A stretch of 62,380 bases of DNA from Ignavibacteriales bacterium (GCA_037443685.1 JBBINX010000005.1:1-62380); one strand, 5' to 3'. Shown: positions 2,627 to 20,771, counted from the stretch's first letter. Translations and numbers: made by a program. Notes: a model not told the origin generated them from the letters alone.

Positions 2627-2635
2627 TTTAATAGT

Positions 2636-2662
2636 GTGCGGCAGTGTTTTTTACTGCCGCAC
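2636..2662 (+). terminator. Hairpin between the large cargo gene and the PorV-like gene (possible attenuator or partial terminator)
   Basis: Perfect 10-bp stem gtgcggcagt / actgccgcac with loop gtttttt, followed by only ttt. It overlaps the ORF-track GTG start at 2634. Confidence 0.5.
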
Positions 2663-2690
2663 TTTAGAATATTTTAAAAATAGGAGAATA

Positions 2691-3719
2691 ATGAATATGA
2701 GAAAATTTATAACAGTCTTAATATTATCGGTAATATTCTCTACCTTGTTGATGGCAGGAGACGTATCGAGAAAAGGTACATCTGGTGCGGAACAATTGCT
2801 GATTCCCGTAGGAGCAAGGGGAATTGCAACTGGTGGAGCATTTTTATCGAATATTTCAGGAATGGAAGCAATATATTATAATCCAGCTGGTTTGGATTAC
2901 GTGAAGCGGACTGAAGGGATGTTCAGTTATATGTCATATATAGCCGACATTAATATTTCGTATATTGCAGTTGGAACGAGTATCGAAAATTTGGGGACAT
3001 TTGCTCTTAGTTTCAAGACTCTAGATTTTGGAGATATCCCCATTACCACTTTTGACAGTCCAGATGGAATTGGAGCTAATTATTCACCACAATATTATAT
3101 TGCTGGCTTATCTTATTCCAAAATGATAAATGATAGGGTTACGATCGGAATAAATACAAAATTTATTAATGAAACCATTATGAGTGTTAATGCAAACGGT
3201 TTCGCAATTGATTTTGGTGTACAATATCGATTTAGACAAAACTTCTCCCTCGGCGCTGTAGTAAAAAATATTGGAACAAATATGAGATACCAAGGCACTG
3301 ATTTACAGGTAAAAACACCTATTCCTAATAGTCAACCCGGAACAGTACCTGGTGTTTATGAAGCTGCGACTGAACCATTCCAGATTCCAAGTTATTTTTC
3401 TTTGAGCATTGCATATGATTATGCACTTAACGAACAGAACAAATTAATTATCGGTTCAACGTTCACAAATAACAATACATACGAAGACGAACTAAAACTT
3501 GGTTTAGAATACGGCTTCATGAATTCATTCTTCTTACGTGGAGGTTATAATACCATTGTAAAGAATGTTGATAAATCTATATACGGTTTAACATTTGGTG
3601 CTGGGGTTGATTATAAATTTATTGAAGGTATCGGTTTGGTTTTTGATTATGCATATAGAGATATCAAAGATTTTCCAACCCCTAATCACGTGTTCACAAT
3701 AAAGATATTTGTTGATTAA
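2691..3719 (+). CDS. PorV/PorQ-family outer-membrane beta-barrel protein (T9SS-associated), copy 1
   Basis: Signal peptide MNMRKFITVLILSVIFSTLLMA. N-terminal signature GAEQLLIPVGARGIATGG....EAIYYNPAGL, typical of PorV/PorQ. Alternating beta-strand pattern through to the C-terminal HVFTIKIFVD. About 45% identical by eye to 14553..15599. Start moved to ATG 2691 (AGGAG at 2683-2687) because 2634..2690 covers the hairpin. Confidence 0.75.
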   Translation: MNMRKFITVLILSVIFSTLLMAGDVSRKGTSGAEQLLIPVGARGIATGGAFLSNISGMEAIYYNPAGLDYVKRTEGMFSYMSYIADINISYIAVGTSIENLGTFALSFKTLDFGDIPITTFDSPDGIGANYSPQYYIAGLSYSKMINDRVTIGINTKFINETIMSVNANGFAIDFGVQYRFRQNFSLGAVVKNIGTNMRYQGTDLQVKTPIPNSQPGTVPGVYEAATEPFQIPSYFSLSIAYDYALNEQNKLIIGSTFTNNNTYEDELKLGLEYGFMNSFFLRGGYNTIVKNVDKSIYGLTFGAGVDYKFIEGIGLVFDYAYRDIKDFPTPNHVFTIKIFVD

Positions 3720-3793
3720 TAAAAGCGTGTAAATGTCTAATCTGCCGGTTTGTCGGGCAGGATGCCACGCCTCTTACGGTGTGGAGATTTATT

Positions 3794-3832
3794 GTGTAGG
3801 TTGAGTTTTTTACTCAACCTACACTTTTTTTT
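3794..3832 (+). terminator. Rho-independent terminator
   Basis: Perfect 12-bp stem gtgtaggttgag / ctcaacctacac, 7-nt loop, then a T8 run. Confidence 0.85.
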
Positions 3833-4659: not shown

Positions 4660-7600
4660 ATGAAACCGTCGTCAATTCTTAGTTTAATTTTACTTTTTAT
4701 CTTTATTAGTGAATTGTCCGCAATTCAACCCCCTCGACCAGGTGTTAAACCTTCGCCTCAAGTGATCAAAGAATTTCAAGAAATACAAAAAGACTATCGT
4801 ACTGGGTATTGGGCAGACCGGATAGAGGCAAGGTATAAAATACTGCAAGAAAATCCAGAATATCTTTATACACGAAGAGAAATATTCGTTGATTCAATTT
4901 ATGCTCCTACATTACTCGGTTATTATACTGATTTACTGCCAGTTTATACTCGAGCACAATTTCAAGCTGTTTTATGGGATGGTCCAAACCCCACTGGAAC
5001 TGTTACAGATTATTATCGAGAAGTATCTTATGGTAATATGGAACTCTCTGGTTATTGTGAAAATTGGTCACCGGTGTTAGGTCCTGTTGCTAATTACAGT
5101 CCAGGTTCCTCAGCAGGAGGAAGAAAATTCGTTTGGGAACTTCTTCAATCAAGTGATATTCACGTAGATTTTAGTAAATATGTTCAAACGATTGATGCAA
5201 ATGGAAACGGACATGTCCCCTTCTTAGTGGTTATACACACCGGTGGAGGTGCAGAAGCCGGTGCTCCAAACATTTGGTCGCATCGTTCGGATTTTAGTGG
5301 AACGTATGGCAAATTTTATAGCAACGATACATTACCGAATGGAAAACGAGTTATCGTGGATGGTCCTTATGCGATTCAACCTGAAATGCTGGGGAGTAGT
5401 AATACTGGTGGTGCTATCCAAACTATAGGTGTATTTGCTCATGAGCTAGGACATATATTTAATATTCCGGATCTATATGATGTTTCGGGTCAAGGTGAAG
5501 GGATTGGCGGCTGGTGCTTAATGGCTTCAGGAAGTTATGGTGGTGACCAAAGAAACTCTGCAAAACCTTCTCACATGTCAGCGTGGTGTAAAGAACGAAT
5601 GGGTTGGGTGGTACCTACGGTAGTTACTTCAAATTTAGATAACCAAGTTTTACAACCTGTGGAGTGGACGCAGCAAATTTATAAATTATGGAGAAACGGT
5701 GTACCAGGACAACAATATTTCTTAATTGAAAATAGGCAAAAAACCGGATTCGATATTTCGTTACTCGAAAGTGGTTTATTAATCTTCCACGTTGACAACA
5801 CAATCGCATCTCAAAACAATCCGAATAGATATAAGGTTGATTTAGAACAATCAGATGGGATGAGGCATCTAAACCTTAAAACTAATAGAGGCGATACTGG
5901 CGATCCATATCCAGGGTCTGGAGGTTCTAATAATCCAAACCGAATATTTGATGGATATTCTACTCCAAATAGCAGAGATTATTCGAACTTGACCACGGGA
6001 GTTATTGTTGGAAATATCAGAAAAGTAGATACTTTAATATTGGCAAATATTTCGGTGTGGGATACTGTAACTGTAGCCCCAGCATTTACAAATGTAACGA
6101 TTACAGCTGGTGTTTCTGATTCGAGCGAAAGTTATGGTGTATCTGCAGTCGATTATGATAACGACGGCTGGACAGATATCTATGTTGCTAACCGCACAGC
6201 AAACCGCCTGTACAAAAACAATCACAACGGTACGTTCACAAATACAGCAGTTACTGCTGGAGTTGCAGACGCTGATATCAACCGCTCTGGCATTTGGGCC
6301 GACTACGATAACGACGGGTTGAACGACCTATATGTTACAACTTATAACACAATTATTTTAACAAAGAAAAACAAACTTTATAAAAATAACGGTAATGGTA
6401 CATTTACTAACCAAACGACAAACGATCTAAGTTATGCCGATAAATCGATGGGTGCCGCATTCGCCGATTATAATAACGATGGCTACATAGATGTTTTCAT
6501 CACTCATGATATAAATAAAAGTCGTCTCTATAAAAATAATGGAGATGGAACTTTTACACTTGATACAATTTGCGGTATCAATTATCAAGCCAGGGGAAAT
6601 TCTGCCACTTGGGGTGATTATAATAATGACGGTTTTCTCGATCTTTATATAGTAACCAGAGAAGAAACTAAACCGAGCGCACTGTGGAAGAACAACGGTG
6701 ATGGTACATTTATCGATATGACAGCAATCGCCGGCGTGGGTAATAATTTAGTTGGATCAGGTGCAGCATGGGGCGATTTCGATAACGATGGTTTCCTTGA
6801 CCTCGCAGTCTGTAATGAAGGTGGAGAAAACAGATTATATAAAAACAACAAAGATGGTACATTTACCAATGTTGCATTATCTGCCGATATTCAGGATGGC
6901 GGTATTAACTATTCACCAGTTTTTATAGATTATGATTTAGATGGATACTTAGATTTATATATTGCCCGCATTGGACCTAATCGACTCTATAAAAATTTAG
7001 GCAATGGAACATTCACTGAAATTGCCGGTCGAATGGGAGTATCAACAAGTGCATCTACTATAAGTGCATCGGTTTTAGATTTCAACAACGATGGCTTTCC
7101 TGACATTTATTTAGGTAGTAGTTCAGCTACAATTTCTAATGTTCTTTATCGGCATGCTGGTTCAGTAAACAGATGGTTAAAAATTTCTGTAACTGGAACT
7201 GTGTCGAATCGAAATGCTATTGGAGCTAAAATTACAGCTATCACAGGGGGATTAAAACAGATACGAGAAATCAGCGGTGGAACAGGTTGTATGTCGCAAA
7301 ACAGTTATACTCAGTTCTTTGGATTTGGAACAGTAGCGACGATTGATTCTCTAATTATAAGATTCCCTTCGGGTGGAATTTATAAATTAGCTAATGTAGC
7401 TACGAATCAGCATTTGGTAATTGATGAAAGTATGGTATCAGCAGACGAGACTGCAACAGTACCGGATAAATTTTATATATCACAAAATTTTCCCAATCCG
7501 TTTAATCCAACAACCCAAATTAACTTTCAAATTCCAGAACGGGGTTATATAACGTTATCCGTTTTAGACATTTTAGGACGTGAGGTAGATGTAATATTGA

Positions 7601-7743
7601 AAAAGGAGCTGTCCGCCGGTAAGCACACGGTGTCTTGGGATGGTAGCAAATTTTGTTCCGGCATCTATTTCTATAGAATAATGATAAAAAGTAAAAATAC
7701 GTTGGTTACGACTCATATTAAGAAGATGATTCTGCTTAAATAA
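4660..7743 (+). CDS. Secreted M6-family (InhA-like) metalloprotease fused to seven FG-GAP/VCBS repeats, an ASPIC/UnbV-like domain and a T9SS type-A C-terminal domain
   Basis: Signal peptide present. Zinc motif HELGHIFNIPDLYD. Seven D(Y/F)(D/N)NDG(F/W/Y).D(I/L)Y repeats, each followed by LYKNNG(D/N)GTF. NRWLKISVTGTVSNRNAIGAKI (UnbV/ASPIC-like). C-terminal FPNPFNPTTQINFQIP...GIYFYRI. Confidence 0.8.
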   Translation: MKPSSILSLILLFIFISELSAIQPPRPGVKPSPQVIKEFQEIQKDYRTGYWADRIEARYKILQENPEYLYTRREIFVDSIYAPTLLGYYTDLLPVYTRAQFQAVLWDGPNPTGTVTDYYREVSYGNMELSGYCENWSPVLGPVANYSPGSSAGGRKFVWELLQSSDIHVDFSKYVQTIDANGNGHVPFLVVIHTGGGAEAGAPNIWSHRSDFSGTYGKFYSNDTLPNGKRVIVDGPYAIQPEMLGSSNTGGAIQTIGVFAHELGHIFNIPDLYDVSGQGEGIGGWCLMASGSYGGDQRNSAKPSHMSAWCKERMGWVVPTVVTSNLDNQVLQPVEWTQQIYKLWRNGVPGQQYFLIENRQKTGFDISLLESGLLIFHVDNTIASQNNPNRYKVDLEQSDGMRHLNLKTNRGDTGDPYPGSGGSNNPNRIFDGYSTPNSRDYSNLTTGVIVGNIRKVDTLILANISVWDTVTVAPAFTNVTITAGVSDSSESYGVSAVDYDNDGWTDIYVANRTANRLYKNNHNGTFTNTAVTAGVADADINRSGIWADYDNDGLNDLYVTTYNTIILTKKNKLYKNNGNGTFTNQTTNDLSYADKSMGAAFADYNNDGYIDVFITHDINKSRLYKNNGDGTFTLDTICGINYQARGNSATWGDYNNDGFLDLYIVTREETKPSALWKNNGDGTFIDMTAIAGVGNNLVGSGAAWGDFDNDGFLDLAVCNEGGENRLYKNNKDGTFTNVALSADIQDGGINYSPVFIDYDLDGYLDLYIARIGPNRLYKNLGNGTFTEIAGRMGVSTSASTISASVLDFNNDGFPDIYLGSSSATISNVLYRHAGSVNRWLKISVTGTVSNRNAIGAKITAITGGLKQIREISGGTGCMSQNSYTQFFGFGTVATIDSLIIRFPSGGIYKLANVATNQHLVIDESMVSADETATVPDKFYISQNFPNPFNPTTQINFQIPERGYITLSVLDILGREVDVILKKELSAGKHTVSWDGSKFCSGIYFYRIMIKSKNTLVTTHIKKMILLK

Positions 7744-7798: not shown

Positions 7799-7829
7799 TT
7801 GACATAATTGAAGATATTTATTATCTTTG
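7799..7829 (+). promoter_or_regulatory. Candidate sigma-70-type promoter for the receptor/cargo/PorV-like operon
   Basis: TTGACA (7799-7804), 17-nt spacer, TATCTT (7822-7827). The tatctttg stretch also fits the Bacteroidota -7 consensus TAnnTTTG. It lies about 150 nt upstream of the ATG at 7981. Confidence 0.45.
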
Positions 7830-7980
7830 CAACGGAAGTTATGAGTTTTAAACAATATAACAACAACATAGGAGAGATTTATGAGGTTTTGTTCTAACTT
7901 TTTTTAACACACATCTTATCGTATCATTTTCAAATCAAATAATTTCATTTATTAACAACCTTAAAATAGGAGGTAAAATT

Positions 7981-10956
7981 ATGAAACGTAGATTACTATT
8001 ATTGTTCACAGTTGTCTTGTTACTGCCTGCGGTTTTATTAGCACAGGACGGTAAACTGCGAGGGAAAATAACAGATATATCTACCGGTGAAGCTTTGATT
8101 GGTGCATCAATTACACTTGATGGTACAACAATAGGTGCTGCTACTGATATTGATGGTGAGTACATTATATTAAGTATTCCACCCGGAACTTACACTTTAC
8201 GGGTTACTTATATTGGTTATGCACCGTATGTCCTCTCGAATGTTCGTGTTTCATCGAACATGACAACGACACAAGATTTTCGCATTACGAGCGAAGCCGT
8301 TCAAGTCGAGGCAGTCGAAATCGTTGCTGAACGTCCTTTAGTTCAACGCAACACTACTAACACTGTTCGTTTGGCAACCCAGGAAGATATAGAGAATCTT
8401 CCTATTCGCGGGCTTGAAAACATATTAGCTCTCGAAGCTGGTGTCGTCCGCCAAGATGGTAATTTATACGTCCGCGGTGGAAGGGCAGGGGAAGTATCTT
8501 ACTTTATTGATGGTGCTGCTGTAACAAATCCAATTACAAATCGCCAAACAGTAACCGTGATACAAGAAGCTGTTGAAGAATTACAACTTCAAGCTGGTGG
8601 TTATACAGCAGAATATGGAGGTTCAAATTCCGCCATCGCAAGAACAACAATTAGAACCGGGGTCGAAAAATTTAAAGGAACATTTGATTTTCAAACTGAT
8701 AATTTTGTAACTCCTGGTACAACTTATTTTGGAGGCTCATCATTTGGATTCACAAATTCAGTATTGACGATTGGTGGTCCAGTCATGAAAAATTTAAAAT
8801 TTTTCTTAGCTGGTCAATACAACTACATAAGAAATAGAGACCAACGAGTAATTTTTCCATTTGAATTCGATAACCTAGTAACTGATATCTCCGATTCAAG
8901 AGGAGCAGGTCAATCATTACCCGGAAAGGTAGCATTCAAAAAGAATTATATACCAGGTAATTACTTACGAAGTTATATAGGTCAAGGGACTCTTTTATAT
9001 GATTTGAATCCATACAAATTCCGTTTTACTGGAAGCTATCAAGCTGATAAGAGTCCATTTGATGCTCGTTGGCCCGTTGCGCTCCAACGAACATTCAATA
9101 ATAAACGGGATAGGATCGATTATACAAATACTGGTTTTGCCAATCTCCGTTTCAACCATTTGTTGAGTCCAAAAACCTTCTACGAACTAGCTGTGAATTA
9201 TCAGAAGAGATTCTTTAAGAGAGTTGATCCTGACTTTGGAGATGATTGGCAATTATATGCAGATAGTGCAGCGAATGCCGATAAAGGTTATACTGGTTTT
9301 AGACGAAAATATCAAGGTCCTCTACCATATTCTGTAATAAAAGGATTTGAGTTCAATCATGAAAATGCTCCAAATAACATTTATACAAAAAATAAACAGT
9401 CTTCAATCGGAATTTCCGGTGATATTACATCTCAGTTAGGGACAAATTGGGAACTTAAAGCTGGTGCCCGTGCCGATATGTGGACTACAAGAAGTTATAC
9501 AATTAATAATATTTCCGGAGCAATGATATTCTTATACGGTGCCGATGGAAAAACTCCACAAGTCTTCCCGGATGAACAAACCCGGCGAGTTTTATTGGCG
9601 AAAACTGCCGCTGGCAATATTAACCACTATGGTTATGATGTCGATGGTAAAGAAACCGATGAAGGACTCGATGCACCACGCAAACCTTTATTTATATCTG
9701 CTTATGTTCAAAATAAATTTGAATACCAAGATTTAATATTGAACCTCGGTGTTCGTTTCGAACATTTTGATACAAAAACAAAAACCTTCAAAGATCCATT
9801 GAATCCAGACATGAATAATTCACTCGATGTTATCGATGAAGATAAATTGGTCGAAGCCGATCCTTTCAATTTATTATTACCACGGTTCAGCTTCTCATTC
9901 CCAGTTACAAATAATACAGTATTTTATGCAATGTACGGGAAGTATGCTCAAATGCCTTCATTAAATCAATTATACGTTGGTAATACTACACTCAGCCGTA
10001 CCGTGAGCGAAATTACACGTGGTAATGCTTTCTTAACTCCAGTCGGATTGTTAATGAAACCCGAAAGAACAACACAATACGAAATGGGATTCAGGCAATC
10101 GTTAACCGACAATTTTGCATTTACGATAAGCGGTTTCTATAAAGATTTAAAAGATCAACTTCAAGTCCGTAGCTATGTAAACGCAGCCGGAAACAAACTT
10201 TTCACAGCTTACTTAAATGAAGATTTTGGAACCGTAAAAGGATTGGAGTTAACTCTTGAATTACGAAGAACAGCTCGTTTGGCTGCAAAATTAAACTATA
10301 CTCTCTCTGATGCTCGTGGTACTGGTTCAAATTCACAATCGTCATTTGGTGCAGTCGAACAAAATATCGGACGACCAACCAATTTCATTAATCCATTAGA
10401 CTTTAATCAAACTCATCGTGGTTCTCTGTTGTTGGATTATCGATTTGGTAAAAATGATGGCGGACCAATCTTAGAAGAATTGGGAGTTAATGCCGTCCTA
10501 ACATTTAACAGTGGTCATAATTATACAAAGACAAAGGAACCAGCTGAATTAGGTCAAGCAAATCCGTGGAACGTTGGTATCCGACCATTAATAGACGCTC
10601 GGTCAAGCTTCCCAGTTGAGCCTTTGAACAGTTCAACAACACCTTGGTTCTTTAACATTGACCTTAGCATAAGTAAGATGGTTAGGGTGCAAGATTTCGG
10701 TATAGAATTTTATTTGAATGTTTTGAACCTGCTCAATACTCAAAATATAATTAATGTTTATCCTTCTACCGGAACTGCCCAAGACGATGGCTGGCTAAGC
10801 AGTACACTAGCTGCATCCTTTAAAGACATTCCAAATTATACTGAATTCTATAAGGCCATTAATTCTCAGAATCGATGGGCGTATGTAACTGCAACAGCCA
10901 ACGATATGTATACTGCTCCGCGCCAAGTTCGTGTCGGTGTTAAGGTCGAATTATAA
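7981..10956 (+). CDS. TonB-dependent outer-membrane receptor with an N-terminal carboxypeptidase-regulatory-like domain
   Basis: Signal peptide present. GKITDISTGEALIGASITLDGTTIGAATDIDGEYIILSIPPGTYTLRVTYIGYAP (CarboxypepD_reg fold). Plug-like region (NLPIRGLENILALEAGV, YVRGGRAGEVSYFIDG). Long beta-barrel with alternating-residue strands. Confidence 0.85.
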   Translation: MKRRLLLLFTVVLLLPAVLLAQDGKLRGKITDISTGEALIGASITLDGTTIGAATDIDGEYIILSIPPGTYTLRVTYIGYAPYVLSNVRVSSNMTTTQDFRITSEAVQVEAVEIVAERPLVQRNTTNTVRLATQEDIENLPIRGLENILALEAGVVRQDGNLYVRGGRAGEVSYFIDGAAVTNPITNRQTVTVIQEAVEELQLQAGGYTAEYGGSNSAIARTTIRTGVEKFKGTFDFQTDNFVTPGTTYFGGSSFGFTNSVLTIGGPVMKNLKFFLAGQYNYIRNRDQRVIFPFEFDNLVTDISDSRGAGQSLPGKVAFKKNYIPGNYLRSYIGQGTLLYDLNPYKFRFTGSYQADKSPFDARWPVALQRTFNNKRDRIDYTNTGFANLRFNHLLSPKTFYELAVNYQKRFFKRVDPDFGDDWQLYADSAANADKGYTGFRRKYQGPLPYSVIKGFEFNHENAPNNIYTKNKQSSIGISGDITSQLGTNWELKAGARADMWTTRSYTINNISGAMIFLYGADGKTPQVFPDEQTRRVLLAKTAAGNINHYGYDVDGKETDEGLDAPRKPLFISAYVQNKFEYQDLILNLGVRFEHFDTKTKTFKDPLNPDMNNSLDVIDEDKLVEADPFNLLLPRFSFSFPVTNNTVFYAMYGKYAQMPSLNQLYVGNTTLSRTVSEITRGNAFLTPVGLLMKPERTTQYEMGFRQSLTDNFAFTISGFYKDLKDQLQVRSYVNAAGNKLFTAYLNEDFGTVKGLELTLELRRTARLAAKLNYTLSDARGTGSNSQSSFGAVEQNIGRPTNFINPLDFNQTHRGSLLLDYRFGKNDGGPILEELGVNAVLTFNSGHNYTKTKEPAELGQANPWNVGIRPLIDARSSFPVEPLNSSTTPWFFNIDLSISKMVRVQDFGIEFYLNVLNLLNTQNIINVYPSTGTAQDDGWLSSTLAASFKDIPNYTEFYKAINSQNRWAYVTATANDMYTAPRQVRVGVKVEL

Positions 10957-10993
10957 TTTATTTTAACAATCAGATAATAGAAGGAATATAAAT

Positions 10994-13900
10994 ATGGAAA
11001 AATATAAATTTAAAGCATTCATATTATTAATGGCACTTGTAGTATCTATTGGGAATTTAGTCTTCAGCGCTGAGGATCCAAATAAAGCTACAAACCATTA
11101 TAATCAATCGTTCCAAAAAGGAACTGGAACTCCTGTCTGGCAAATATTAAATATCAATAATATTTGGACATGGATGCGAGCTGACGGGCAACAAAATCAC
11201 TCACCAACTGCCGACGATGGCGCTTACTTCCCAAGAGGTACAAAATGGGTAATTTATCAAGACGGCTTTGTTTGGGGGGGTAAGGCATTCTTAGATGAGG
11301 CTTTAACTCAACCTGCTCCAATTCATGCTGAACCTATAAGAATCGGTGGCCAAACCTATAATATTGGTACCCGTGCAGGTCGGATTATCGGTTCCGGTGC
11401 AACAGCAGTTGCTGCTGATCCTGCTGCTGCAGATGTTAGAATTTACAGAATTCGGAGAGACTATTTTACGATGAAAGTAGAAGAATTAAAACGAGATGCC
11501 GCCGAATCATACGAAATTCCAATAGACAATGTGTCATCTGCACAGATGGCTGCAATTACTGCTCAATACGCCCTCGATTGGAACGAATGGCCTGTAGCTT
11601 ATGGCGCACCTTATATCGAGCGAAATGGAATTGCAGGATATCAAAAACCACCTGCGTTCTCTACTAATTTTACGGTTGATTCACTTATTGCCCATAATTA
11701 CGATGAACCAGGTTTAGCTGGTGCCGACCCAAATTCTCCTGCAGATCAAGTTATCTGGACAGTAATAAATGATTTAGATAGAAGTGCAACACTCGGCTTA
11801 TTCGGTTCAGAACCTTTGGGTTTAGAAGCTCAAATTACTCTCTGGGGTTACAAACGAACCGATGCAATGGGAAATTTGTACTTTAAAAAAATTAAATTTA
11901 CAAACAAAGGTGGTGTTGATATCGGCGGCGGTACAAAGGGCTCATTCTATATCGATAGTATGTTCATCGCTCAATGGTCAGATCCCGATTTAGGTGCCTT
12001 TGGTGACGACCTCTGTGGTACTGACTCAGTATTAAGTCTTGGATTTGTCTACAATGGCTTACCAGTCGATGCAGAATTCAATAAATTCAAATTACCTCCA
12101 CCAGCGGTGGGTTACGATTTCTTACAAGGACCATTAGTTCCTGGTTTACCAAGCGATTCTGGTGTGTTTAATTTACGAAGAGTTTACGGAAAGAAGAACC
12201 TCCCATTAACATCATTTGCATATTTCTCTGCTGGTTCTGGTATCTCGGATCCACCGTTCACTCGCGAAGGTGGCTTGAGGTGGTGGAGAATGTTGCAAGG
12301 TTTTGTACCCGATGCATCTACAGCCACTTGGAGATTATATCCTCATCCGACAGGAATGACTTTAACGAAATTCCCATTGTCAGGTGAGCCCACAACAAGA
12401 TCCGGTTTTATTGATGGGTTGGGGACGGCGTGGTCATTAGCCCCTGGCGACAGACGTATTGTGTTAAATAGTGGTCCGTTCAGGTTGAATCCCGGTGATA
12501 TCCAAGAAATCGTTGTTGGTACAGTAGCTGGTCTTGGTTCAGATCGCTTATCAAGTGTATCTGTTATGAAATTTAACGATAGATTTGTACAAAACACTTA
12601 TAACGCATTATTCGTAGTTCCAAAACCGCCAAAAGCTCCAAAAGTTACGGTAGCAGAATTAGATGGTCAGGTTATATTAGAATGGGGTAGTGACCAAACT
12701 GCTGTAAATTCTACAGAAATTCCTGTAAACTTTCCGGGTGGATATAAATTTGAGGGTTACAATGTTTATCAATTACCAAGCCGCTCTTCTTCATTATCAG
12801 AAGGTAAGCGGATTGCAACATACGATTTGACAACAGATCCAACTGTAATACTTAACGAAGATTTTGATGTTGCGTCCGGTCAAATACTTTTAAAACCAAT
12901 TCAATTTGGAACAAACAGTGGAATTACCAGAAATTTCAATTTTACACGTGACTATGTTAAAGATATTGACAAGATTTATAATGGGCAAGAATATTATCTT
13001 GTAGTGACTGCATATAGTTATTCTACAGTAACAGGTTATTTACCGACTTCATTAGAGTCAGAACCAACTGTATTAACGGTGCGTCCACAATCTGGTGTTG
13101 GTGTTAAATATACCGGTGTACATGGTAAGTTAGCTCCCGCAACAAGTGTCGGTGCATTTAATGATGGTTTTGTGAATGCTTTGATTATAAATCCAAAGGT
13201 AACAACTGGTGCAGAGTACGAAGTTAGTTTTACTCCAATCCCGACGAATCCAACTAAAATGCAATGGTCACTTAAAAATTTATCGAATAATGTTGTTCAT
13301 GGTCCATTTAAAAATTTAGGTGCGGCACTTGGTGGCAACATCTATGAATATCCTATAATCGATGGTATATTCTGGGAAGTTGCCGGTCCGCCAAGTGAAG
13401 TAAAAGATTTTAAAAGGATCGGTGAAATTGCAAAAAGCGACAGTGTACGAATTCACGGAGGAATGACAACAACTTCCGGCTTAACTGGTCCTTATTGGGT
13501 TGGTGAAGGTGGTAGTGGTATATTTGGTGGTGTATCTACATCGCGTGCGAAAGCTGCGGATATGAAAAATGTAATTATCGTATTTGACGAAACAGTCTCT
13601 CCGGCACAAAGAATGGCTTATAGGTATGTCCGTGCTGGACAAAACGCTAAAGCTGATCCCCGTTATACTGATCCTCCATACGGTCGTACCACCTATACAA
13701 CCTCGTCGTGGGGTTATTGCGATACAGCAGTTGTGCCATTCAGAGCTTTTCGTTATGATCCTGAAGCTGGTATTACAACACCAGTTCAGCTCGCAGTTGG
13801 TTTCTCTGAAAATAATGTAGCTGGATGCTGGGTAGATGGCAGATTTGGCCCAACGAACGGTACAGCATCACTTGCAGAAGGTGGGCGGGAATTTTTAATC

Positions 13901-14515
13901 GTATTCAATAAACCATACGACGCAACGATGATGCAAGATGAATATAAATATAACATATTGGGTACTGCGGCAAGTCCTTATGGTGCAGAAGGTTGGCACG
14001 ACGCTACATTTGTATATTGGTTCAGAAGTACTAAGTTATACAGTATAGCAGCATTAGCAGCTGGAGACGAAGTACCAAAAATTTGGAAAAATGGAGATTC
14101 ACTACTAACTAAAGCAAATCACGTATTAAGCACAGCTGTGAAATTCATTGTAAAATCACCTAATATTATTTCGAATGACGAATTACTGAAACAAGATGTC
14201 GCTAAAATTGGTGTTTATCCAAATCCATATTATGCATACAACCCAGCAGAGACAAATAGATTCGTACGATTTGTAACATTCAATAAATTACCAACTAAAG
14301 CTACAATTAGAATATTTAATGTTGCTGGTATTTTGGTCCGAACAATACAGAAAGATGATCCTTCACAATTTCTAAGATGGGATCTGAATAACGAAGATAA
14401 CTTCCCTGTAGCAAGTGGTATGTATATTGTTCATGTTGATCTGCCAGACATTGGACAATCAAAGGTGCTCAAATTAGCAATTATACAAGAGCAAGAAGTA
14501 CCTGAGGTATTTTAA
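10994..14515 (+). CDS. 1173-aa secreted orphan surface protein with an FN3-like segment and a T9SS-type C-terminal sorting domain
   Basis: Signal peptide MEKYKFKAFILLMALVVSIGNLVFSA. I recognise no catalytic motif. FN3-like PPKAPKVTVAELDGQVILEWGSD...YKFEGYNVYQ. C-terminal domain as in feature 1. The gene starts 37 nt after the receptor gene ends. Confidence 0.8.
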   Translation: MEKYKFKAFILLMALVVSIGNLVFSAEDPNKATNHYNQSFQKGTGTPVWQILNINNIWTWMRADGQQNHSPTADDGAYFPRGTKWVIYQDGFVWGGKAFLDEALTQPAPIHAEPIRIGGQTYNIGTRAGRIIGSGATAVAADPAAADVRIYRIRRDYFTMKVEELKRDAAESYEIPIDNVSSAQMAAITAQYALDWNEWPVAYGAPYIERNGIAGYQKPPAFSTNFTVDSLIAHNYDEPGLAGADPNSPADQVIWTVINDLDRSATLGLFGSEPLGLEAQITLWGYKRTDAMGNLYFKKIKFTNKGGVDIGGGTKGSFYIDSMFIAQWSDPDLGAFGDDLCGTDSVLSLGFVYNGLPVDAEFNKFKLPPPAVGYDFLQGPLVPGLPSDSGVFNLRRVYGKKNLPLTSFAYFSAGSGISDPPFTREGGLRWWRMLQGFVPDASTATWRLYPHPTGMTLTKFPLSGEPTTRSGFIDGLGTAWSLAPGDRRIVLNSGPFRLNPGDIQEIVVGTVAGLGSDRLSSVSVMKFNDRFVQNTYNALFVVPKPPKAPKVTVAELDGQVILEWGSDQTAVNSTEIPVNFPGGYKFEGYNVYQLPSRSSSLSEGKRIATYDLTTDPTVILNEDFDVASGQILLKPIQFGTNSGITRNFNFTRDYVKDIDKIYNGQEYYLVVTAYSYSTVTGYLPTSLESEPTVLTVRPQSGVGVKYTGVHGKLAPATSVGAFNDGFVNALIINPKVTTGAEYEVSFTPIPTNPTKMQWSLKNLSNNVVHGPFKNLGAALGGNIYEYPIIDGIFWEVAGPPSEVKDFKRIGEIAKSDSVRIHGGMTTTSGLTGPYWVGEGGSGIFGGVSTSRAKAADMKNVIIVFDETVSPAQRMAYRYVRAGQNAKADPRYTDPPYGRTTYTTSSWGYCDTAVVPFRAFRYDPEAGITTPVQLAVGFSENNVAGCWVDGRFGPTNGTASLAEGGREFLIVFNKPYDATMMQDEYKYNILGTAASPYGAEGWHDATFVYWFRSTKLYSIAALAAGDEVPKIWKNGDSLLTKANHVLSTAVKFIVKSPNIISNDELLKQDVAKIGVYPNPYYAYNPAETNRFVRFVTFNKLPTKATIRIFNVAGILVRTIQKDDPSQFLRWDLNNEDNFPVASGMYIVHVDLPDIGQSKVLKLAIIQEQEVPEVF

Positions 14516-14552
14516 CCATACGGATCAATAACAAATAATAGGAGATAACAAA

Positions 14553-15599
14553 ATGAAAACAAAAACATTTATAAGTATATTGGTATTCTGTGTGGTGATG
14601 TTTGGTGTTATTGATGTCGCACACGCACAGAATAAAAGAATTGGTACTGCTGCTGCGGCTGAATTATTGATTCCTGTTGGAGCGAGAGATCTCGCTATGG
14701 GTGGCTCAACTTTAGCAAGTACAGTTGGGGCAGAAGCAATACATTGGAACCCAGCAGGCTTAAGTAAAATGAAAAATACTGCCGAAGGTATGTTCTCGAA
14801 TATGTCATACATTGGTGATATTGGAGTTAACTATGGTGCAGTCGGTGTTAATTTTGGGGATTTTGGTATAGTTGGGTTAAGTTTAAAATCGCTTAATTTT
14901 GGTGATATTCCGTTAACCACAAACGAAGACCCTGAAGGATTAACCGGAAGATTATTTTCTCCAACCTACTTTACACTCGGTTTGACATACTCAAAAGCTC
15001 TTACTGATGAAATTTCAGCCGGCACAAATATTAAGCTTATTTCTGAACAAATTGATAGAGTGTCAGCATCAGGAATTGCATTCGATTTTGGTATTCAATA
15101 CAATAATTTGGCGAATATCACAGGGTTAAACATCGGTGTAGCTATAAAAAATATTGGGCCCCAATTACAATACGATGGTCCAGGTTTATATCGTAATGCA
15201 ATATCGAGCGATGGTCGTCGACCAGAACAAAAGTATAAGAGTCAAGCTGCTACTTTTGAATTACCGTCACTCATTGAAATCGGTGTCGCTTACATCAACA
15301 AATTCAGTGATAATATGATTTCCAGTTTTAACTCATCTTTCACTAATAACAACCTATACGTTGATGAATATAAGATTGGTGCTGAGTTTGGATATTTCTT
15401 AGAATCAATAAAATTATTTGGCCGCGGGGGTATCGCATTAACACCTGACCTCGAAACCAAAGAAAATATTTTTGGTCCGACATTTGGTATCGGCATAGTA
15501 TACACGACCCCTAGTCTGGATATCACAGTCGATTATGCATACAGACAAACTGAATTCTTCGACGGAAATAATGTATTATCAGTAAAACTCGGTTTCTAA
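14553..15599 (+). CDS. PorV/PorQ-family outer-membrane beta-barrel protein, copy 2
   Basis: Signal peptide ending VAHAQ. AAAELLIPVGARDLAMGG....EAIHWNPAGL. Paralog of 2691..3719. Ends with the beta-barrel-like terminal strand VLSVKLGF. Confidence 0.75.
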   Translation: MKTKTFISILVFCVVMFGVIDVAHAQNKRIGTAAAAELLIPVGARDLAMGGSTLASTVGAEAIHWNPAGLSKMKNTAEGMFSNMSYIGDIGVNYGAVGVNFGDFGIVGLSLKSLNFGDIPLTTNEDPEGLTGRLFSPTYFTLGLTYSKALTDEISAGTNIKLISEQIDRVSASGIAFDFGIQYNNLANITGLNIGVAIKNIGPQLQYDGPGLYRNAISSDGRRPEQKYKSQAATFELPSLIEIGVAYINKFSDNMISSFNSSFTNNNLYVDEYKIGAEFGYFLESIKLFGRGGIALTPDLETKENIFGPTFGIGIVYTTPSLDITVDYAYRQTEFFDGNNVLSVKLGF

Positions 15600-15629
15600 T
15601 TCTGGTCGTAGATCCATCGTTAACTATTC

Positions 15630-15656
15630 AAAGGCTGGCCATTTGGGTCAGCCTTT
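15630..15656 (+). terminator. Terminator-like hairpin closing the receptor/cargo/PorV-like unit
   Basis: aaaggctg / cagccttt 8-bp stem, extendable by inner gcc/ggt pairs, followed by a weak T-rich tail. Confidence 0.5.
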
Positions 15657-15682
15657 GTTATATTTATTATAATTAAAGGCTA

Positions 15683-17998
15683 ATGGAAAAAATTACACTT
15701 AAATTCGTTTTATCAGTTTTATTATTATTTCAAATAGTTCAAATTACTGCATCGCAAGTAACTACATATTTTCCCGAGCTTGGGAAAACAGCACTCTATC
15801 AACATTCATTAGAATTACGCAACAATCTAAAAGTACTGAGTATAGCCATTAAACCAGGATACGAAGATTTAACCGCTTTGTCGTATCTTAGGTTAGCAAA
15901 GGGCGCAAAGATTACGAGTGTCTATGTTACCAATGGTGAAGCTGGCGAAAGTGATTTATGTTTTGAATACCCTCATCGTTTTGCTGCTCGATTGAGAGAA
16001 GAAGCGAATCAAGCAATCTCTATAATTGACGGAGAAGTTTATTTTCTATCTTTCCCTGATATAATATCCGCTAAAGATTCAGTAAAAATATTATCACTTT
16101 GGCCACGGGATAAGTTGTTTGCTCGATTGAAAGAATTAATATCAAATTTTAAACCTGATATTATACTTTTAGCTAGAGACTTGAAGTTCGGAGGGGAAAG
16201 TCCACTATTGGAATTTTTAAAAAATGAATTAATGAATGCCTGCTTTGAGATTTCTGAGAATAATTTGCAACAAATCCGACTATTTTATGATGATCCTGCA
16301 AAAAAGGGAATAGTATTACCTATCCAAGATAAATACAGGGTGGCTGCGAAATCGTATAAGCAAATTGGAGAAGAGGCTGGTCTAGCGTATAAATCTATAC
16401 AATATCAATTGACTAATTATAAAAAATCTGTCGTATCATCATATACGCTTCTTCTGCCTAAGAAATTACATGCAATAAAAGTAATTGATAAAGGTTTACC
16501 GATTATAAATTCAAAATTATTGCGCTCCCTCCATAGTCGTATTAATACTTTGACGGATGCAACTATTAAAGGTGATCGGACAATATCAATCGGCAATAAT
16601 AAATCAACAGGTGTTTTGAAATTAATTGTGGAAATAACAGATAGTTTAGATTATCTCCTTATAACCCGAGGACTTATTAATGAATATGAGAGGTCTATAG
16701 TATTAGATTGGAAAAGTGGATTAGATAAATTAAAAAATACTTTGCTTGGTGTTACGGTGAATTATTCTATAAGTGAAACAGTATTAACAGAAAGGCAATT
16801 AACTTATATAAATATTAATAATGTTTCAGGATTAAGTAATAATGGAACAACAGAAATTTATTTTCCAGCAGCCAGCGAAGGTTGGATAATCAATGAAGAT
16901 ATCCAAAAGAAATTGAGTTTAACTTTAGATCAAAATTATCGTTTAGTCTCACCTGAAAAACTCGAATATAATTATCCTCATGCTGAATATGGTATATCTA
17001 AACATACGATAGGAAATCCTTTTATATTTTTTGTTATTCATCGGGCACACAGCAAAGAAAATAGTTTTATTCATAAAACAGTGTTGAGATTGAATTATGC
17101 CCCCCGCTTCGTAACTGAGATACTTACTCCCATAGTTAAAGTATGCTCAGGTGAAAAATTAATATTTAAATTAACTAATAATTCCAGAGATGGAGTTGCT
17201 GACAAAGTTGTTATACAAGATCCAATAGTTCAATCAAGGCCATCTCAATTCAGATTAAATTACAAAGGAGCAGAACATCAGGATACTCTATTGTTGAATT
17301 GGAATATAGATATTCCCGAAAATAATTATTTAATCTCATTGAATATAGACGATACAAAGATTGCTCGTTTCGCTGCTAGAAAATTTGATTTTAAAGTCGA
17401 CACAACGAAGAAAGTAGGAATAATTAAATCGTTAGTAAATTCTCCAATCACTGAAGTCCTTAGAAGATTAAATATAAAGTATCTGGATATTTCCTCTGTA
17501 AATATTGATGAAAATAATTTTATGTTTGATGTTATTATTATCGATAGAGGAGCAATGACTAGTAACGATAAAATCATTAGAAACAAATCGGAATTATTAC
17601 GTTTTGTTGAAAATGGGGGACATTTATTAATATTATCTCAAGATTCGAAGGTCTGGAATAAAAATCCGTTAGTTGATGATTTTCAATTGAAATCCGTTTT
17701 TAATTTAGATGAAACAATACCGATCGAGATAGATTCTGGTCATAAAATAAATAATATACCTAATCAAATTAAAATTGATGATTTTGATAATTGGATATAT
17801 TTAAATAGTTACAATAGGGTTACAATTTCTTCTGATCTATCTGTCGCTGTACCGCTGCGATCATTGAATTCCCCGCTATTAGTATCGAAGTTCCAAGGAA
17901 AAGGTAAGATAACTTATGTCGATTTAGCTTTCCATCACCAATGGATCAATATCCATCCCGGGTCGTTCAGATTGCTTGCAAATTTAATCGCTTATTGA
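15683..17998 (+). CDS. Secreted 771-aa protein: N-terminal PIG-L/LmbE-like fold with degenerate metal-ligand motifs, C-terminal class-I-glutamine-amidotransferase-like/ThuA-like module
   Basis: LKVLSIAIKPGYEDL....AKGAKITSVYVTNGEAGESD parallels the LmbE pattern (vl.i.aHPDDe....G..v..v..T.G..G), but HPDD is replaced by KPGYED. C-terminal FDVIIIDRGAMTS...LLRFVENGGHLLILSQD. The domain calls are by eye only. Confidence 0.4.
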   Translation: MEKITLKFVLSVLLLFQIVQITASQVTTYFPELGKTALYQHSLELRNNLKVLSIAIKPGYEDLTALSYLRLAKGAKITSVYVTNGEAGESDLCFEYPHRFAARLREEANQAISIIDGEVYFLSFPDIISAKDSVKILSLWPRDKLFARLKELISNFKPDIILLARDLKFGGESPLLEFLKNELMNACFEISENNLQQIRLFYDDPAKKGIVLPIQDKYRVAAKSYKQIGEEAGLAYKSIQYQLTNYKKSVVSSYTLLLPKKLHAIKVIDKGLPIINSKLLRSLHSRINTLTDATIKGDRTISIGNNKSTGVLKLIVEITDSLDYLLITRGLINEYERSIVLDWKSGLDKLKNTLLGVTVNYSISETVLTERQLTYININNVSGLSNNGTTEIYFPAASEGWIINEDIQKKLSLTLDQNYRLVSPEKLEYNYPHAEYGISKHTIGNPFIFFVIHRAHSKENSFIHKTVLRLNYAPRFVTEILTPIVKVCSGEKLIFKLTNNSRDGVADKVVIQDPIVQSRPSQFRLNYKGAEHQDTLLLNWNIDIPENNYLISLNIDDTKIARFAARKFDFKVDTTKKVGIIKSLVNSPITEVLRRLNIKYLDISSVNIDENNFMFDVIIIDRGAMTSNDKIIRNKSELLRFVENGGHLLILSQDSKVWNKNPLVDDFQLKSVFNLDETIPIEIDSGHKINNIPNQIKIDDFDNWIYLNSYNRVTISSDLSVAVPLRSLNSPLLVSKFQGKGKITYVDLAFHHQWINIHPGSFRLLANLIAY

Positions 17999-19052: not shown

Positions 19053-19478
19053 ATGGCTGGTAAAAGTTTAAACAAAGTGATGTTGATTGGTAATTTAGGT
19101 AAAGATCCAGAATTGAGATATACAGCAAATGGCACCCCCGTAGCTTCATTCTCGATAGCTACTTCAGATAGTTGGAAGGATCTCGAAGGGAATTTAACAG
19201 AAAGAACCGAGTGGCACAATATCGTCGCGTGGAGAAAGCTTGCCGAGATATGTGGAGAATGGCTGAAAAAGGGTCAAAAAGTTTACATTGAAGGAAGCAT
19301 AAGAAATAGGTCATACGATGATAAAAACGGTGTAAAACGTTATGTTACAGAAATAATCGCGGATGATCTAATTATGTTAGGCGGAGGGAAAGGAAATGCG
19401 GATATAGAATCTGACCATAAATCACCGCAAGCAACTTCACCAAATACAGAAGAAAAAGAAGACGATCTTCCATTTTAA
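19053..19478 (+). CDS. ssb: Single-stranded DNA-binding protein
   Basis: [32 protein letters not shown]...[14 protein letters not shown], with the acidic tail ending DDLPF. Confidence 0.95.
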
Positions 19479-19484
19479 TCGGAT

Positions 19485-20771
19485 TTGGAACTTGAACAGT
19501 TAACATATTTTATTTTATTTTTTATACTGATAGGACTATCGGCTTTTTTTTCTGGGAGCGAGGTGGCTTTTTTTTCTTTGAGTTCTTCGGAGAGAGAAAA
19601 ATTAGCACACAAAAAATCTTACGTTGCTAAAAAAATATTGCAATTAATTAATTATCCATCTCGTTTATTAGCAACTATTCTTATTTTAAATACAGTTGTA
19701 AACGTTTCTGCCGTTGTAATTGCAGCTTTTCTTACATTACAATTAGCCGATATTTTGGGTTACAATCAGGTGATATTGATATTAGTCGAAATTGTTGTTG
19801 TAACATTGATTATCCTGATAGTCGGTGAAATTACCCCTAAACTTATTGCAAAACGTTTTGCTCTAAATTTTACTACAATAGTGGTAATTCCGATGTCTGT
19901 TTTTATGTGGTTATTATTTCCTGTCACAAAACTATTTGAATATTTGCGAACAATTATCCAAAAGAAGTTTCAAGCTGATAAAAAGAGAAACACTATTAAA
20001 ACTACAGATATCGAACAATTGGCTGATGTTGTCTCGACACGCACAAATATCGATGAGCCTTCGAAAAACTTATTTCAAATAATCAGTGGATTATCGGATA
20101 TTTCTGTAAAAGATATTTTAATCCCGCGAATGAATATTACGGCATTCGATATTAAAACATCTTATGAAAAATTAATCGATGCAGTCAAATATTCCCAACA
20201 CTCATACATACCTATATACGAAAACAATATGGATAATATTTTAGGTATAATTCGTTCAAAAGAGTTACTCGTCTATCTGACGATCGAAAAATCATCGAAA
20301 GAATTTAAAATTACAAATTACTTGCAAAAACCCTTATTCGTTCCTGAAACAAAAAAAGTTATTGAAATGATCAAACAATTTCAGGACACAAGGATTCACT
20401 GTGCAATAGTTGTTGATGAACACGGAGGTACTGTCGGTATGATTACATTGAATAGTACGCTCAAATATTTGATGGACGATTATAAGACGATATTACAGAG
20501 CGATTTAAAACGGATCAAAAAAATGACCGCAACGACTTTTCTTGTAAGTGGATCAGTACCAGTAGAAACAATAGAAATAGAATTGAATACTTCTTTAGAT
20601 ATCGGAGAAACGGATATTTCGACTATCGGAGGTTTTGTTTTTCATTTAGCAGGAAAAGTCCCCGACAAAGGAGAAAAATTCACGTACAAAAATTTGATAT
20701 TTGAACCGATTAGTATCAAACAAAATCGCATCGATGAATTAATAATCACATTAACAAATGCAGTTATATAA
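19485..20771 (+). CDS. CNNM/DUF21-CBS-CorC_HlyC family membrane protein (hemolysin/Mg-Co efflux-related)
   Basis: N-terminal four-TM DUF21 with SGSEVAFFSL, a CBS pair region, and a C-terminal CorC/HlyC-like domain (TIGGFVFHLAGKVPDKGE). TTG start. Confidence 0.8.
   Translation: MELEQLTYFILFFILIGLSAFFSGSEVAFFSLSSSEREKLAHKKSYVAKKILQLINYPSRLLATILILNTVVNVSAVVIAAFLTLQLADILGYNQVILILVEIVVVTLIILIVGEITPKLIAKRFALNFTTIVVIPMSVFMWLLFPVTKLFEYLRTIIQKKFQADKKRNTIKTTDIEQLADVVSTRTNIDEPSKNLFQIISGLSDISVKDILIPRMNITAFDIKTSYEKLIDAVKYSQHSYIPIYENNMDNILGIIRSKELLVYLTIEKSSKEFKITNYLQKPLFVPETKKVIEMIKQFQDTRIHCAIVVDEHGGTVGMITLNSTLKYLMDDYKTILQSDLKRIKKMTATTFLVSGSVPVETIEIELNTSLDIGETDISTIGGFVFHLAGKVPDKGEKFTYKNLIFEPISIKQNRIDELIITLTNAVI

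Follow-up and report, generated by a model that had tools for sequence, protein, structure and literature searches.

Introduction

Our picture of TonB-dependent uptake in Bacteroidota comes from SusC/SusD-type pairs, in which an outer membrane transporter works with a surface lipoprotein partner. T9SS, the type IX secretion system, is understood as a route for enzymes, adhesins, and the components of its own attachment complex. Here we describe an operon that joins T9SS and TonB-dependent uptake. It lies in a 62,380-nt stretch of DNA from an Ignavibacteriales bacterium (GCA_037443685.1, JBBINX010000005.1:1-62380; the whole stretch is called the window below). The operon encodes a TonB-dependent receptor, a 1173-aa protein with a signal peptide and a T9SS-type C-terminal domain (CTD), which we call B, and an outer membrane barrel of the PorV/PorQ family, which we call V. 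The parts are of known kinds, and their combination is new: a CTD substrate and its own barrel are syntenic with a receptor in thousands of sequence clusters from at least five phylum-level lineages. We favor the model that the operon encodes a unit for TonB-dependent uptake, in which T9SS delivers the surface partner and a retained CTD tethers it to a dedicated barrel, and we put the probability of this model at roughly one half.

The attachment complex of Porphyromonas gingivalis provides one precedent. Among T9SS substrates, two are known to retain the CTD: PorZ, whose CTD is bound by PorQ, and PorU, whose CTD is bound by PorV. Cognate PorV-like barrels have been proposed to shield CTDs from cleavage (PMC10202324). 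B and V resemble these pairs in that the CTD of B is PorZ-like and PorQ is the best specific match of the barrel. Unlike PorZ and PorU, B has neither beta-propellers nor a Cys/His peptidase. B and V are also encoded together behind a TonB receptor, occur in several paralogous copies, and involve an extra tail on B that ends in Phe or Tyr. A second precedent comes from Flavobacterium, where PorP/SprF-like barrels encoded next to type B CTD cargo such as SprB are thought to anchor that cargo (PMC9143113, PMC10202324). As with SprB and SprF, a dedicated barrel gene adjoins its cargo gene in our operon. However, the CTD of B is type A (TIGR04183) rather than type B, V belongs to the PorV/PorQ rather than the PorP/SprF family, and the known cases involve no receptor.

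The operon also shares features with SusC/SusD and RagA/RagB. In all of these, the gene for the partner sits right behind the receptor gene, the receptor carries a CarboxypepD_reg-like extension, and the pairs multiply into paralogous loci. The receptor described here nevertheless fails the SusC/RagA model, and its putative partner is an all-beta protein of ~125 kDa rather than a SusD-fold lipoprotein. The predicted route of B to the surface is T9SS instead of lipoprotein export, and a barrel forms the third gene of the unit. Ignavibacteria can also have SusC/D (PMC3534657), so the description "SusD-less" fits the operon and not the phylum.

Similar gene orders have been published for Rhodothermus marinus. 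Its alginate locus contains genes for a TonB receptor (2,805 nt), a protein with a T9SS type A sorting domain (2,181 nt), and a PorV/PorQ family protein (1,056 nt) beside alginate lyases (PMC9530828). Its xylan locus contains a receptor (Rmar_1070), a CTD protein (Rmar_1071), Rmar_1072, and a second CTD protein (Rmar_1073) (PMC6987092). The likeness to our operon is one of gene order and annotation, with the same order in the alginate locus and a similar one in the xylan locus. The middle protein of the alginate locus (~727 aa) is shorter than B, and carbohydrate-active enzymes surround the R. marinus loci, whereas housekeeping genes surround the operon here. A figure legend also lists "T9SS" and "porV/Q" genes in hmu clusters of Porphyromonas (PMC12106395). 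These three papers (PMC9530828, PMC6987092, and PMC12106395) offer no interpretation of the R. marinus or hmu genes in question, and we found none in the literature we searched. Finally, in the BamG-BamH pair of the Bacteroidota BAM complex, a FadL/PorV-like 14-strand barrel is the platform to which a surface-exposed protein attaches (PMC12578637). BamG differs from V in that it holds the N-terminus of a lipoprotein and sits on BamA, with no T9SS CTD and no TonB receptor.

Operon structure and conservation

The three genes run in the same direction between a sigma-70-like promoter and a terminator-like hairpin, with open reading frames (ORFs) exactly as a first-pass annotation of the window had described them (Table 1). 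Bare sigma-70-like patterns are not above chance in this region (63 found, 56 expected). The promoter element, together with its A-rich upstream stretch, is kept at the same place in the related loci L002, L003, L004, and L033, where the remaining spacer has diverged, and equivalent hairpins lie directly 3' of the barrel gene in L002 and L011. Because both promoter and hairpin are conserved, we conclude that the three genes form one transcription unit. The gaps between receptor and B and between B and V are both 37 nt, as annotated, and each holds a Shine-Dalgarno-like AGGA/GGAG element. Gap lengths vary in related loci (medians ~98 nt and ~53 nt), so the equality is a coincidence that carries no meaning. 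We found no riboswitch or other known RNA in the 150-nt leader or elsewhere, and the GC content (0.31-0.39) gives no island signature.

Table 1. Coordinates of the operon, its domains and signals, and nearby features in the window
Feature	Position	Strand	Basis or remark
Promoter, TTGACA-17 nt spacer-TATCTT, A-rich upstream stretch	7799-7827	+	Pattern and conservation
TonB-dependent receptor	7981-10956	+	991 aa ORF
B, predicted T9SS-exported surface protein	10994-14515	+	1173 aa ORF, translation
B N-terminal domain, predicted beta-supersandwich	11126-12628 (residues 45-545)	+	AF2, conservation
B FN3-like beta-sandwich	12629-13093 (residues 546-700)	+	AF2, Foldseek, invariant motifs
B fast-evolving middle region	13094-14203 (residues 701-1070)	+	Low pairwise identity
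B T9SS type A CTD and extra tail	14204-14512 (residues 1071-1173)	+	TIGR04183, conservation
V, PorV/PorQ-family barrel	14553-15599	+	348 aa ORF
Intrinsic-terminator-like hairpin closing the three-gene unit	15629-15657	+	12-bp stem, 7 GC pairs, T-run
cargoA, B paralogue cut by contig end	2-2626	+	Tail ends ...QKQIQRY; same CTD subclass
barrelA, paralogous PorV/PorQ-family barrel	2634-3719	+	NF033709 170.4 bits
M6 (immune inhibitor A-like) metalloprotease, 1027 aa, FG-GAP/ASPIC repeats	4660-7743		Sits between the two modules; PF18962 34 bits
PIG-L/LmbE-like secreted protein, 771 aa, signal peptide	15683-17998	+	PIG-L 36.4 bits (cut-off 28.2)

We examined the conservation of this arrangement in 89 related loci (L numbers) collected from genome, metagenome, and assembly collections. 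A homologous receptor gene directly precedes 64 of the 69 near-full-length B genes that have room upstream. In four of the five exceptions, B comes second in a B-B tandem, and in the fifth (L051) no receptor was detected upstream. Downstream, a PorV-family barrel gene directly follows B in 53 of the 64 cases with room for one. The order of receptor, B, and barrel is kept down to 35% identity. The B family gave 817 matches in a word-indexed search and, at E<=1e-30 in a profile search, 2,477 representatives of clusters at 50% identity; it has no Pfam model. Named members come from Ignavibacteria, KSB1, Candidatus Kryptonia, Calditrichaeota, Latescibacterota, and metagenome-assembled genomes labelled Bacteroidota. 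The synteny that had been noted in a single genome therefore extends to several phyla. Among the loci in which B is not followed by a barrel gene, L051, L055, L056, L058, L062, and L085 have B-B tandems after the receptor, and L071 and L075 have a single B.

A second cargo and barrel pair at the start of the window (cargoA and barrelA) had been reported as a recurrence of the same module, and the two pairs are true paralogues. cargoA is 26% identical to B over ~800 residues (B residues 399-1173, E 7e-38), and barrelA is 40% identical to V. barrelA starts 7 nt after cargoA and is followed by hairpins at 3765-3784 and 3794-3824. In L002, L004, and L007, a second, divergent receptor gene precedes a cargoA-type gene, and in L012 a full first triad is followed by a second receptor and a B of the same type. 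Genomes hold two to three paralogous modules, and the triad of receptor, cargo, and barrel multiplies as a unit. Substrate-specific uptake loci typically multiply as whole units in this way, which would not be typical of a single-copy machine.

The TonB-dependent receptor

The receptor consists of a signal peptide, a CarboxypepD_reg-like N-terminal extension (residues 26-112), a TonB-box-like motif, a plug, and a 22-strand-type barrel, in this order. Its Pfam matches are all above their cut-offs (CarbopepD_reg_2, 66 bits; Plug PF07715, 30.3 bits with a cut-off of 23.9 bits; TonB_dep_Rec_b-barrel PF00593, 102.3 bits with a cut-off of 27 bits), which bears out its annotation as a CarboxypepD_reg-type TonB-dependent receptor. 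The plug and barrel matches fit the arrangement that defines TonB-dependent transporters, an N-terminal plug inside a C-terminal 22-strand barrel. The conserved sequence VEIVAERP (residues 112-119, with xIVAERP at ~113-119), a putative TonB box, resembles that of SusC-type receptors. Its residues A116, R118, and P119 are invariant in 21 orthologues, as are plug residues of the receptor. From the plug and barrel scores together with these invariant positions, the receptor looks like a functional importer.

The receptor does not belong to the SusC/RagA family. Its score on TIGR04056 is 64.8 bits against a cut-off of 368 and comes from the N-terminal extension only. Pfam searches detected no SusD-like domain in the gene after the receptor or in its homologues. 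We found no close solved relative of the receptor; matches were limited to the N-terminal extension and a weak match to the PhuR barrel. After predicted removal of the signal peptide, the receptor (..LLA/QDGK, the same in all orthologues) and the barrel V (..AHA/QNK) would both start with Gln, which is reminiscent of the "Q-rule" known from Bacteroidetes (PMC5837995).

We considered whether the receptor might instead work outward. Oar carries an N-terminal CarboxypepD_reg-like domain, as the receptor does, and no solved importer matches the receptor closely. In Myxococcus, Oar is a TonB-dependent transporter needed for secretion of the PopC protease (PMC6434023). An Oar-type exporter encoded in our operon could aid B or another protein across or at the outer membrane. 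We regard this as highly improbable. B bears a bona fide T9SS signal, so an export route is already present. The receptor matched no Oar-specific model, and adjacency of a receptor and its partner is the normal importer pattern.

The C-terminal domain of B and the PorV-family barrel

The proposal that the 1173-aa protein carries a T9SS-type CTD held up. TIGR04183 matches with 28.1 bits (cut-off 23), and together with the signal peptide (residues 1-25, MEKYKFKAFILLMALVVSIGNLVFS/AE, read from the translation) this CTD makes B a T9SS type A cargo protein. The Pfam model PF18962 stays below its cut-off on B (14.9 bits, cut-off 27), with weak sub-threshold matches in 27 of 40 homologues (best E 0.0017). 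The CTD scores higher on the C-terminus of the PorZ model NF052228 (37.3 bits; model positions 669-757, the CTD only) than on the generic CTD model. B is not a member of the PorZ family, as the score lies below the cut-off of 260 bits and models made with AlphaFold2 (AF2) show sandwich domains and no propellers. With a mean pairwise identity of 71%, the CTD is the best-conserved segment of B.

An extra tail follows the last strand of the CTD (...LKLAIIQEQEVPEVF, residues ~1159-1173). All 68 barrel-linked B homologues (68/68) end in a tail of the form ...K.LK.A(I/V)IQEQE(V/I)Lx(F/Y). In the barrel-less lineages L051/L055 and L056/L058/L062/L071/L075/L085, the NFPVASG sequence of the CTD is changed, with NWQIGSG or NDFVASG in place of the PVASG motif, and the tail is lost or replaced. 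This co-occurrence of tail and barrel gene is suggestive of anchoring by the barrel but is not proof, because barrel-less lineages are few and may represent two or three independent events. Residues 1168-1173 have a predicted local distance difference test (pLDDT) score <50 in the monomer model, as expected for a segment that folds on a partner. The M6-like protease in the same window, an ordinary T9SS cargo with a canonical CTD, ends in ...KKMILLK, without such a tail. In its conservation, its PorZ-like sequence, and a tail that tracks the barrel gene, the CTD of B behaves like an anchor that may be retained on the mature protein.

V scores 149.1 bits on the PorV/PorQ family model NF033709 (cut-off 90), and its only relative in the PDB is PorV of Flavobacterium johnsoniae (6h3i_F, E 8e-9). 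Both results agree with the first-pass annotation of V as a PorV/PorQ-like barrel. V is not PorV proper (NF033710, 67.3 bits, cut-off 250), nor is it PorQ proper, although the PorQ model gives the best equivalog-level match (NF033711, 86.6 bits for V and 103.3 for barrelA, cut-off 220). The BamG model scores 21.7 bits (cut-off 250). A sequence search with the barrel returned orthologues only. It is unlikely that V serves as the organism's sole general PorV, because the window encodes two paralogous barrels, each beside its own cargo and both far below the PorV and PorQ cut-offs.

The PorZ-like CTD and PorQ-like barrel are also consistent with a role inside the secretion machinery, in which the operon would encode lineage-specific components of T9SS or of outer membrane biogenesis. 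B would then correspond to PorZ or PorU, the barrel to PorQ or PorV, and the receptor to PG0534. Adjacent genes for a CTD protein of ~1150 aa and a barrel are known from the porU-porV arrangement. The module is highly conserved across phyla and sits in a conserved housekeeping neighborhood, with ssb and a GldE-like CNNM/CBS gene nearby. PG0534, which is TonB-dependent-receptor-like, is essential for T9SS function in P. gingivalis (PMC5445135). We nevertheless consider this explanation quite unlikely. We found no invariant Cys or His in B among 40 or 50 homologues (the best are C343 at 72%, H69 at 65%, and H1147 at 75%), so B has no PorU-type dyad and is not a PorU-type sortase. B also has no Peptidase_C25 or PorU match, and on these grounds we rejected a divergent PorU-PorV pair. 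The similarity to PorZ (37 bits of the required 260) runs through the CTD only. Two to three paralogous modules per genome and a fast-evolving middle domain further argue against a machine component, as does the occurrence of the same triad order inside a substrate-specific locus of R. marinus (PMC9530828).

Architecture of B

The AF2 model of full-length B is all-beta and multi-domain (pLDDT 73). Its top match in the PDB is PorZ (E 1e-7, template modelling (TM) score ~0.1), followed by FN3 and MG-domain arrays. As the CTD of B is PorZ-like by model score, the structural match to PorZ probably runs through the CTD. Foldseek matches of the whole-chain model comprise CTD, FN3, MG-domain, and surface-layer (S-layer) arrays. 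The N-terminal domain (N-domain, 500 residues) was modeled with high confidence (model m9334dab1b4ce; pLDDT 91, predicted TM score 0.91). Its nearest folds are the N-terminal beta-supersandwiches of GH94 phosphorylases, GH15 glucodextranase, and dextran dextrinase (TM ~0.25, E 5e-6). As modeled, the N-domain is a new variant of this carbohydrate-enzyme accessory fold, and no function follows from the match. An alignment of 40 sequences shows that it bears an acidic DxDxG..DDxxGxD loop and many invariant D, E, R, W, and Y residues.

The annotated FN3-like segment is visible at the structure level only. Its strands span residues 552-700 of the AF2 model, Foldseek matches include FN3 arrays, and the segment holds two invariant motifs, EGYNVYQ and VTAY; it goes undetected by Pfam. 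Besides the CTD, we found no Pfam or NCBIfam domain in the window protein, and no Pfam domain in its sub-segments or in 40 homologues. Searches with Pfam, NCBIfam, PDB-sequence profiles, and Foldseek matched B to no characterized enzyme or adhesin family. These results match the initial description of B as a signal-peptide protein without a recognizable catalytic motif.

The segments of B evolve at different rates. Mean pairwise identity is 59-67% in the N-domain and 62% in the FN3-like domain, and it falls to 37-40% in the middle region. Distances in the middle region correlate with those of the rest of the operon at r 0.08-0.16, compared with 0.7-0.9 elsewhere, and ~200 of its residues cannot be aligned between close relatives whose flanks are 79% identical. 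We rejected the idea that discrete cassettes are swapped in this region. Single-linkage clustering gave one chain-linked cluster, and we therefore describe the middle region as fast-evolving rather than cassette-like. A fast-evolving region that is decoupled from the phylogeny of the operon makes B look like a surface-exposed protein.

The N-domain also occurs in other architectures. A short form (P0256, 730 aa) consists of the N-domain, a small domain, and a canonical CTD without the tail, and P0248 is another short-form member of the family. Much longer proteins also contain the N-domain (P0162 has 1972 aa), and P0220, P0225, and P0254 are among the other architectures. P0256, P0248, and P0162 are encoded on contigs too short to reveal their gene context. 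A CHRD domain (PF07452) is present in the middle region of the homologues P0078, P0089, P0105, and P0116.

A protein of this build could also act by itself. In this view B, delivered by T9SS and anchored at the surface by its own PorV-family barrel, might serve as an adhesin, a surface-layer-like coat, or an exo-enzyme, with the receptor co-transcribed but not in physical contact. Cargo served by a dedicated barrel has established examples in PorZ/PorQ and in type B cargo and PorP/SprF (PMC10202324, PMC9143113). The beta-sandwich build of B would suit such a protein, and its Foldseek matches include arrays of S-layer, FN3, and MG domains. Pressure from phages or predators on an exposed coat would fit the rapid evolution of the middle region, and the invariant acidic and basic residues with the Ca-like loop could mark a new enzyme. 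The conservation of the receptor makes this explanation unlikely in our view. The adjacency of receptor and B (64/69) is tighter than that of B and the barrel (53/64), a receptor paralogue duplicates along with B, and the receptor is kept in barrel-less lineages.

Proposed function and significance

We favor an uptake unit over a part of the secretion machine because of the near-absolute link between receptor and B, the multiplication of the triad, and the fast-evolving exposed region. By analogy, an import role is also supported by the duplication of triads and by the gene orders in the alginate and xylan loci of R. marinus. In the model we favor, the receptor would be a TonB-energized importer. 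B would leave the cell through the Sec pathway and then T9SS. Unlike ordinary cargo, B would retain its CTD, and the CTD and its Phe/Tyr-ending tail would dock on V in the way that PorZ docks on PorQ and PorU on PorV. Receptor, B, and barrel could then form a single physical complex. Beside the receptor, the N-terminal supersandwich and FN3-like domain would provide a framework, with the fast-evolving middle region facing outward. B would capture a substrate, possibly process it, and pass it to the receptor for transport into the cell. Functionally, B would thus occupy the position of SusD and other surface glycan-binding lipoproteins of Bacteroidota. The first-pass annotation had suggested that a PorV paralogue anchors or presents the giant protein beside the receptor. 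The anchoring part is strengthened by the conservation of the CTD, its PorZ-like character, and the link between tail and barrel; the assembly of one complex beside the receptor is a step that we infer.

Several observations weigh against this model. A barrel gene is absent after B in some lineages (L051, L055, L056, L058, L062, L085, L071, and L075). In a distance-matrix (mirror-tree) comparison, all conserved parts of the operon correlate at 0.7-0.9 through shared descent, and partial correlations are small. The partial correlation between barrel and CTD is 0.14, which gives no signal beyond shared descent. The genomic setting also differs from that of a classical polysaccharide-utilization locus, since the genes around the main subfamily are housekeeping genes (GTPase, serA/serC, SppA, and ssb) and not catabolic ones. 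Given the many invariant charged residues, catalysis rather than binding may be the task of B. Finally, L008 (14932-19408; also L013) contains a third kind of module. The gene for a smaller CarboxypepD_reg-type receptor (855 aa) comes first, then two genes for small lipoproteins that are paralogues of each other (lipobox ..LSC/KEPLP), and last a gene for another PorV-family barrel, with 49% identity to V. Here the barrel follows a receptor without T9SS cargo, so the role of the barrel may not be specific for CTDs. This module suggests a broader role for PorV-family barrels, which may serve receptor partners as general platforms in the way BamG serves BamH.

If the model is correct, T9SS and a dedicated barrel, and not lipoprotein export, would place a capture partner on a transporter. 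This would be a second, independent way of building surface capture devices on transporters in the superphylum. It would also give PorV paralogues a role in nutrient import and explain the purpose of many "extra" PorV/PorQ paralogues. A very large protein family without a Pfam model would acquire a function, and the 500-residue N-domain would be a new conserved fold at the core of the partner. The model would further account for unexplained "hypothetical" genes in published polysaccharide-utilization loci of R. marinus. This bacterium is cultivated and genetically tractable and its alginate locus has the same triad order, which makes it a suitable organism for testing the idea. More tentatively, and with somewhat more doubt than belief, we propose that the triad could represent a widespread and unrecognized class of outer membrane uptake machines in the Fibrobacterota-Chlorobiota-Bacteroidota group.

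Neighboring genes

The gene for a PIG-L/LmbE-like protein sits beyond the terminator hairpin of the operon. It is found behind the barrel gene in 23 of 46 loci, all of which encode a B that is at least 44% identical to the B of the window, the closer half of the family. The protein has a weak GATase1-like C-terminal domain. We compared it with the canonical PIG-L/LmbE motif positions, those of MshB. The (A/P)HPDD and HxDH metal and catalytic motifs are replaced by (K/Q/R)PGxED and RD(W), with no His, in 25 of 25 orthologues. The protein is thus probably not a canonical zinc deacetylase, and its features suggest a pseudo-enzyme that is secreted, or else a fold put to new use. Genes for an NHL-repeat protein and ssb often come next to it downstream, in the window and also in L011, L020, L027, L033, L050, L078, and L079. 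In the window, ssb is directly followed by a gene for a CNNM/CBS/CorC_HlyC (GldE-like) protein (19053-20771). The pairing of ssb with a GldE-like gene is known from gliding-motility loci of Flavobacterium. On the other side of the operon, the M6 protease shows a partial match to the model for "T9SS-dependent M6-like inactivated metalloprotease" (94 bits, cut-off 600).

The only recurrent extra neighbors of the main subfamily encode GWxTD, tetratricopeptide repeat (TPR), and DUF4397 proteins. GWxTD-domain proteins are the commonest non-housekeeping neighbor (10 of 130 flanking ORFs scanned) and lie downstream in L009, L086, L091, and L092. In the Kryptonia-type loci L088, L091, L092, and L093, a gene for a DUF4397 protein of ~230 aa directly precedes the receptor gene. 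In L091 and L092, a DUF4249 and TonB receptor pair lies in between.

A few distant loci adjoin genes for proline catabolism, an S9 peptidase, or OppBC. These neighbors hint at peptides as a substrate but are too sparse to rely on. In one distant lineage, represented by L070 (11441-17609) and L074 (12693-18747), a gene for a LuxR-type response regulator precedes the triad. The triad in these two loci is followed by genes for proline dehydrogenase, an aldehyde (P5C-type) dehydrogenase, a PD40 protein, ornithine cyclodeaminase, and two MR/MLE members of the enolase superfamily, which looks like a cluster for the catabolism of proline or hydroxyproline peptides.

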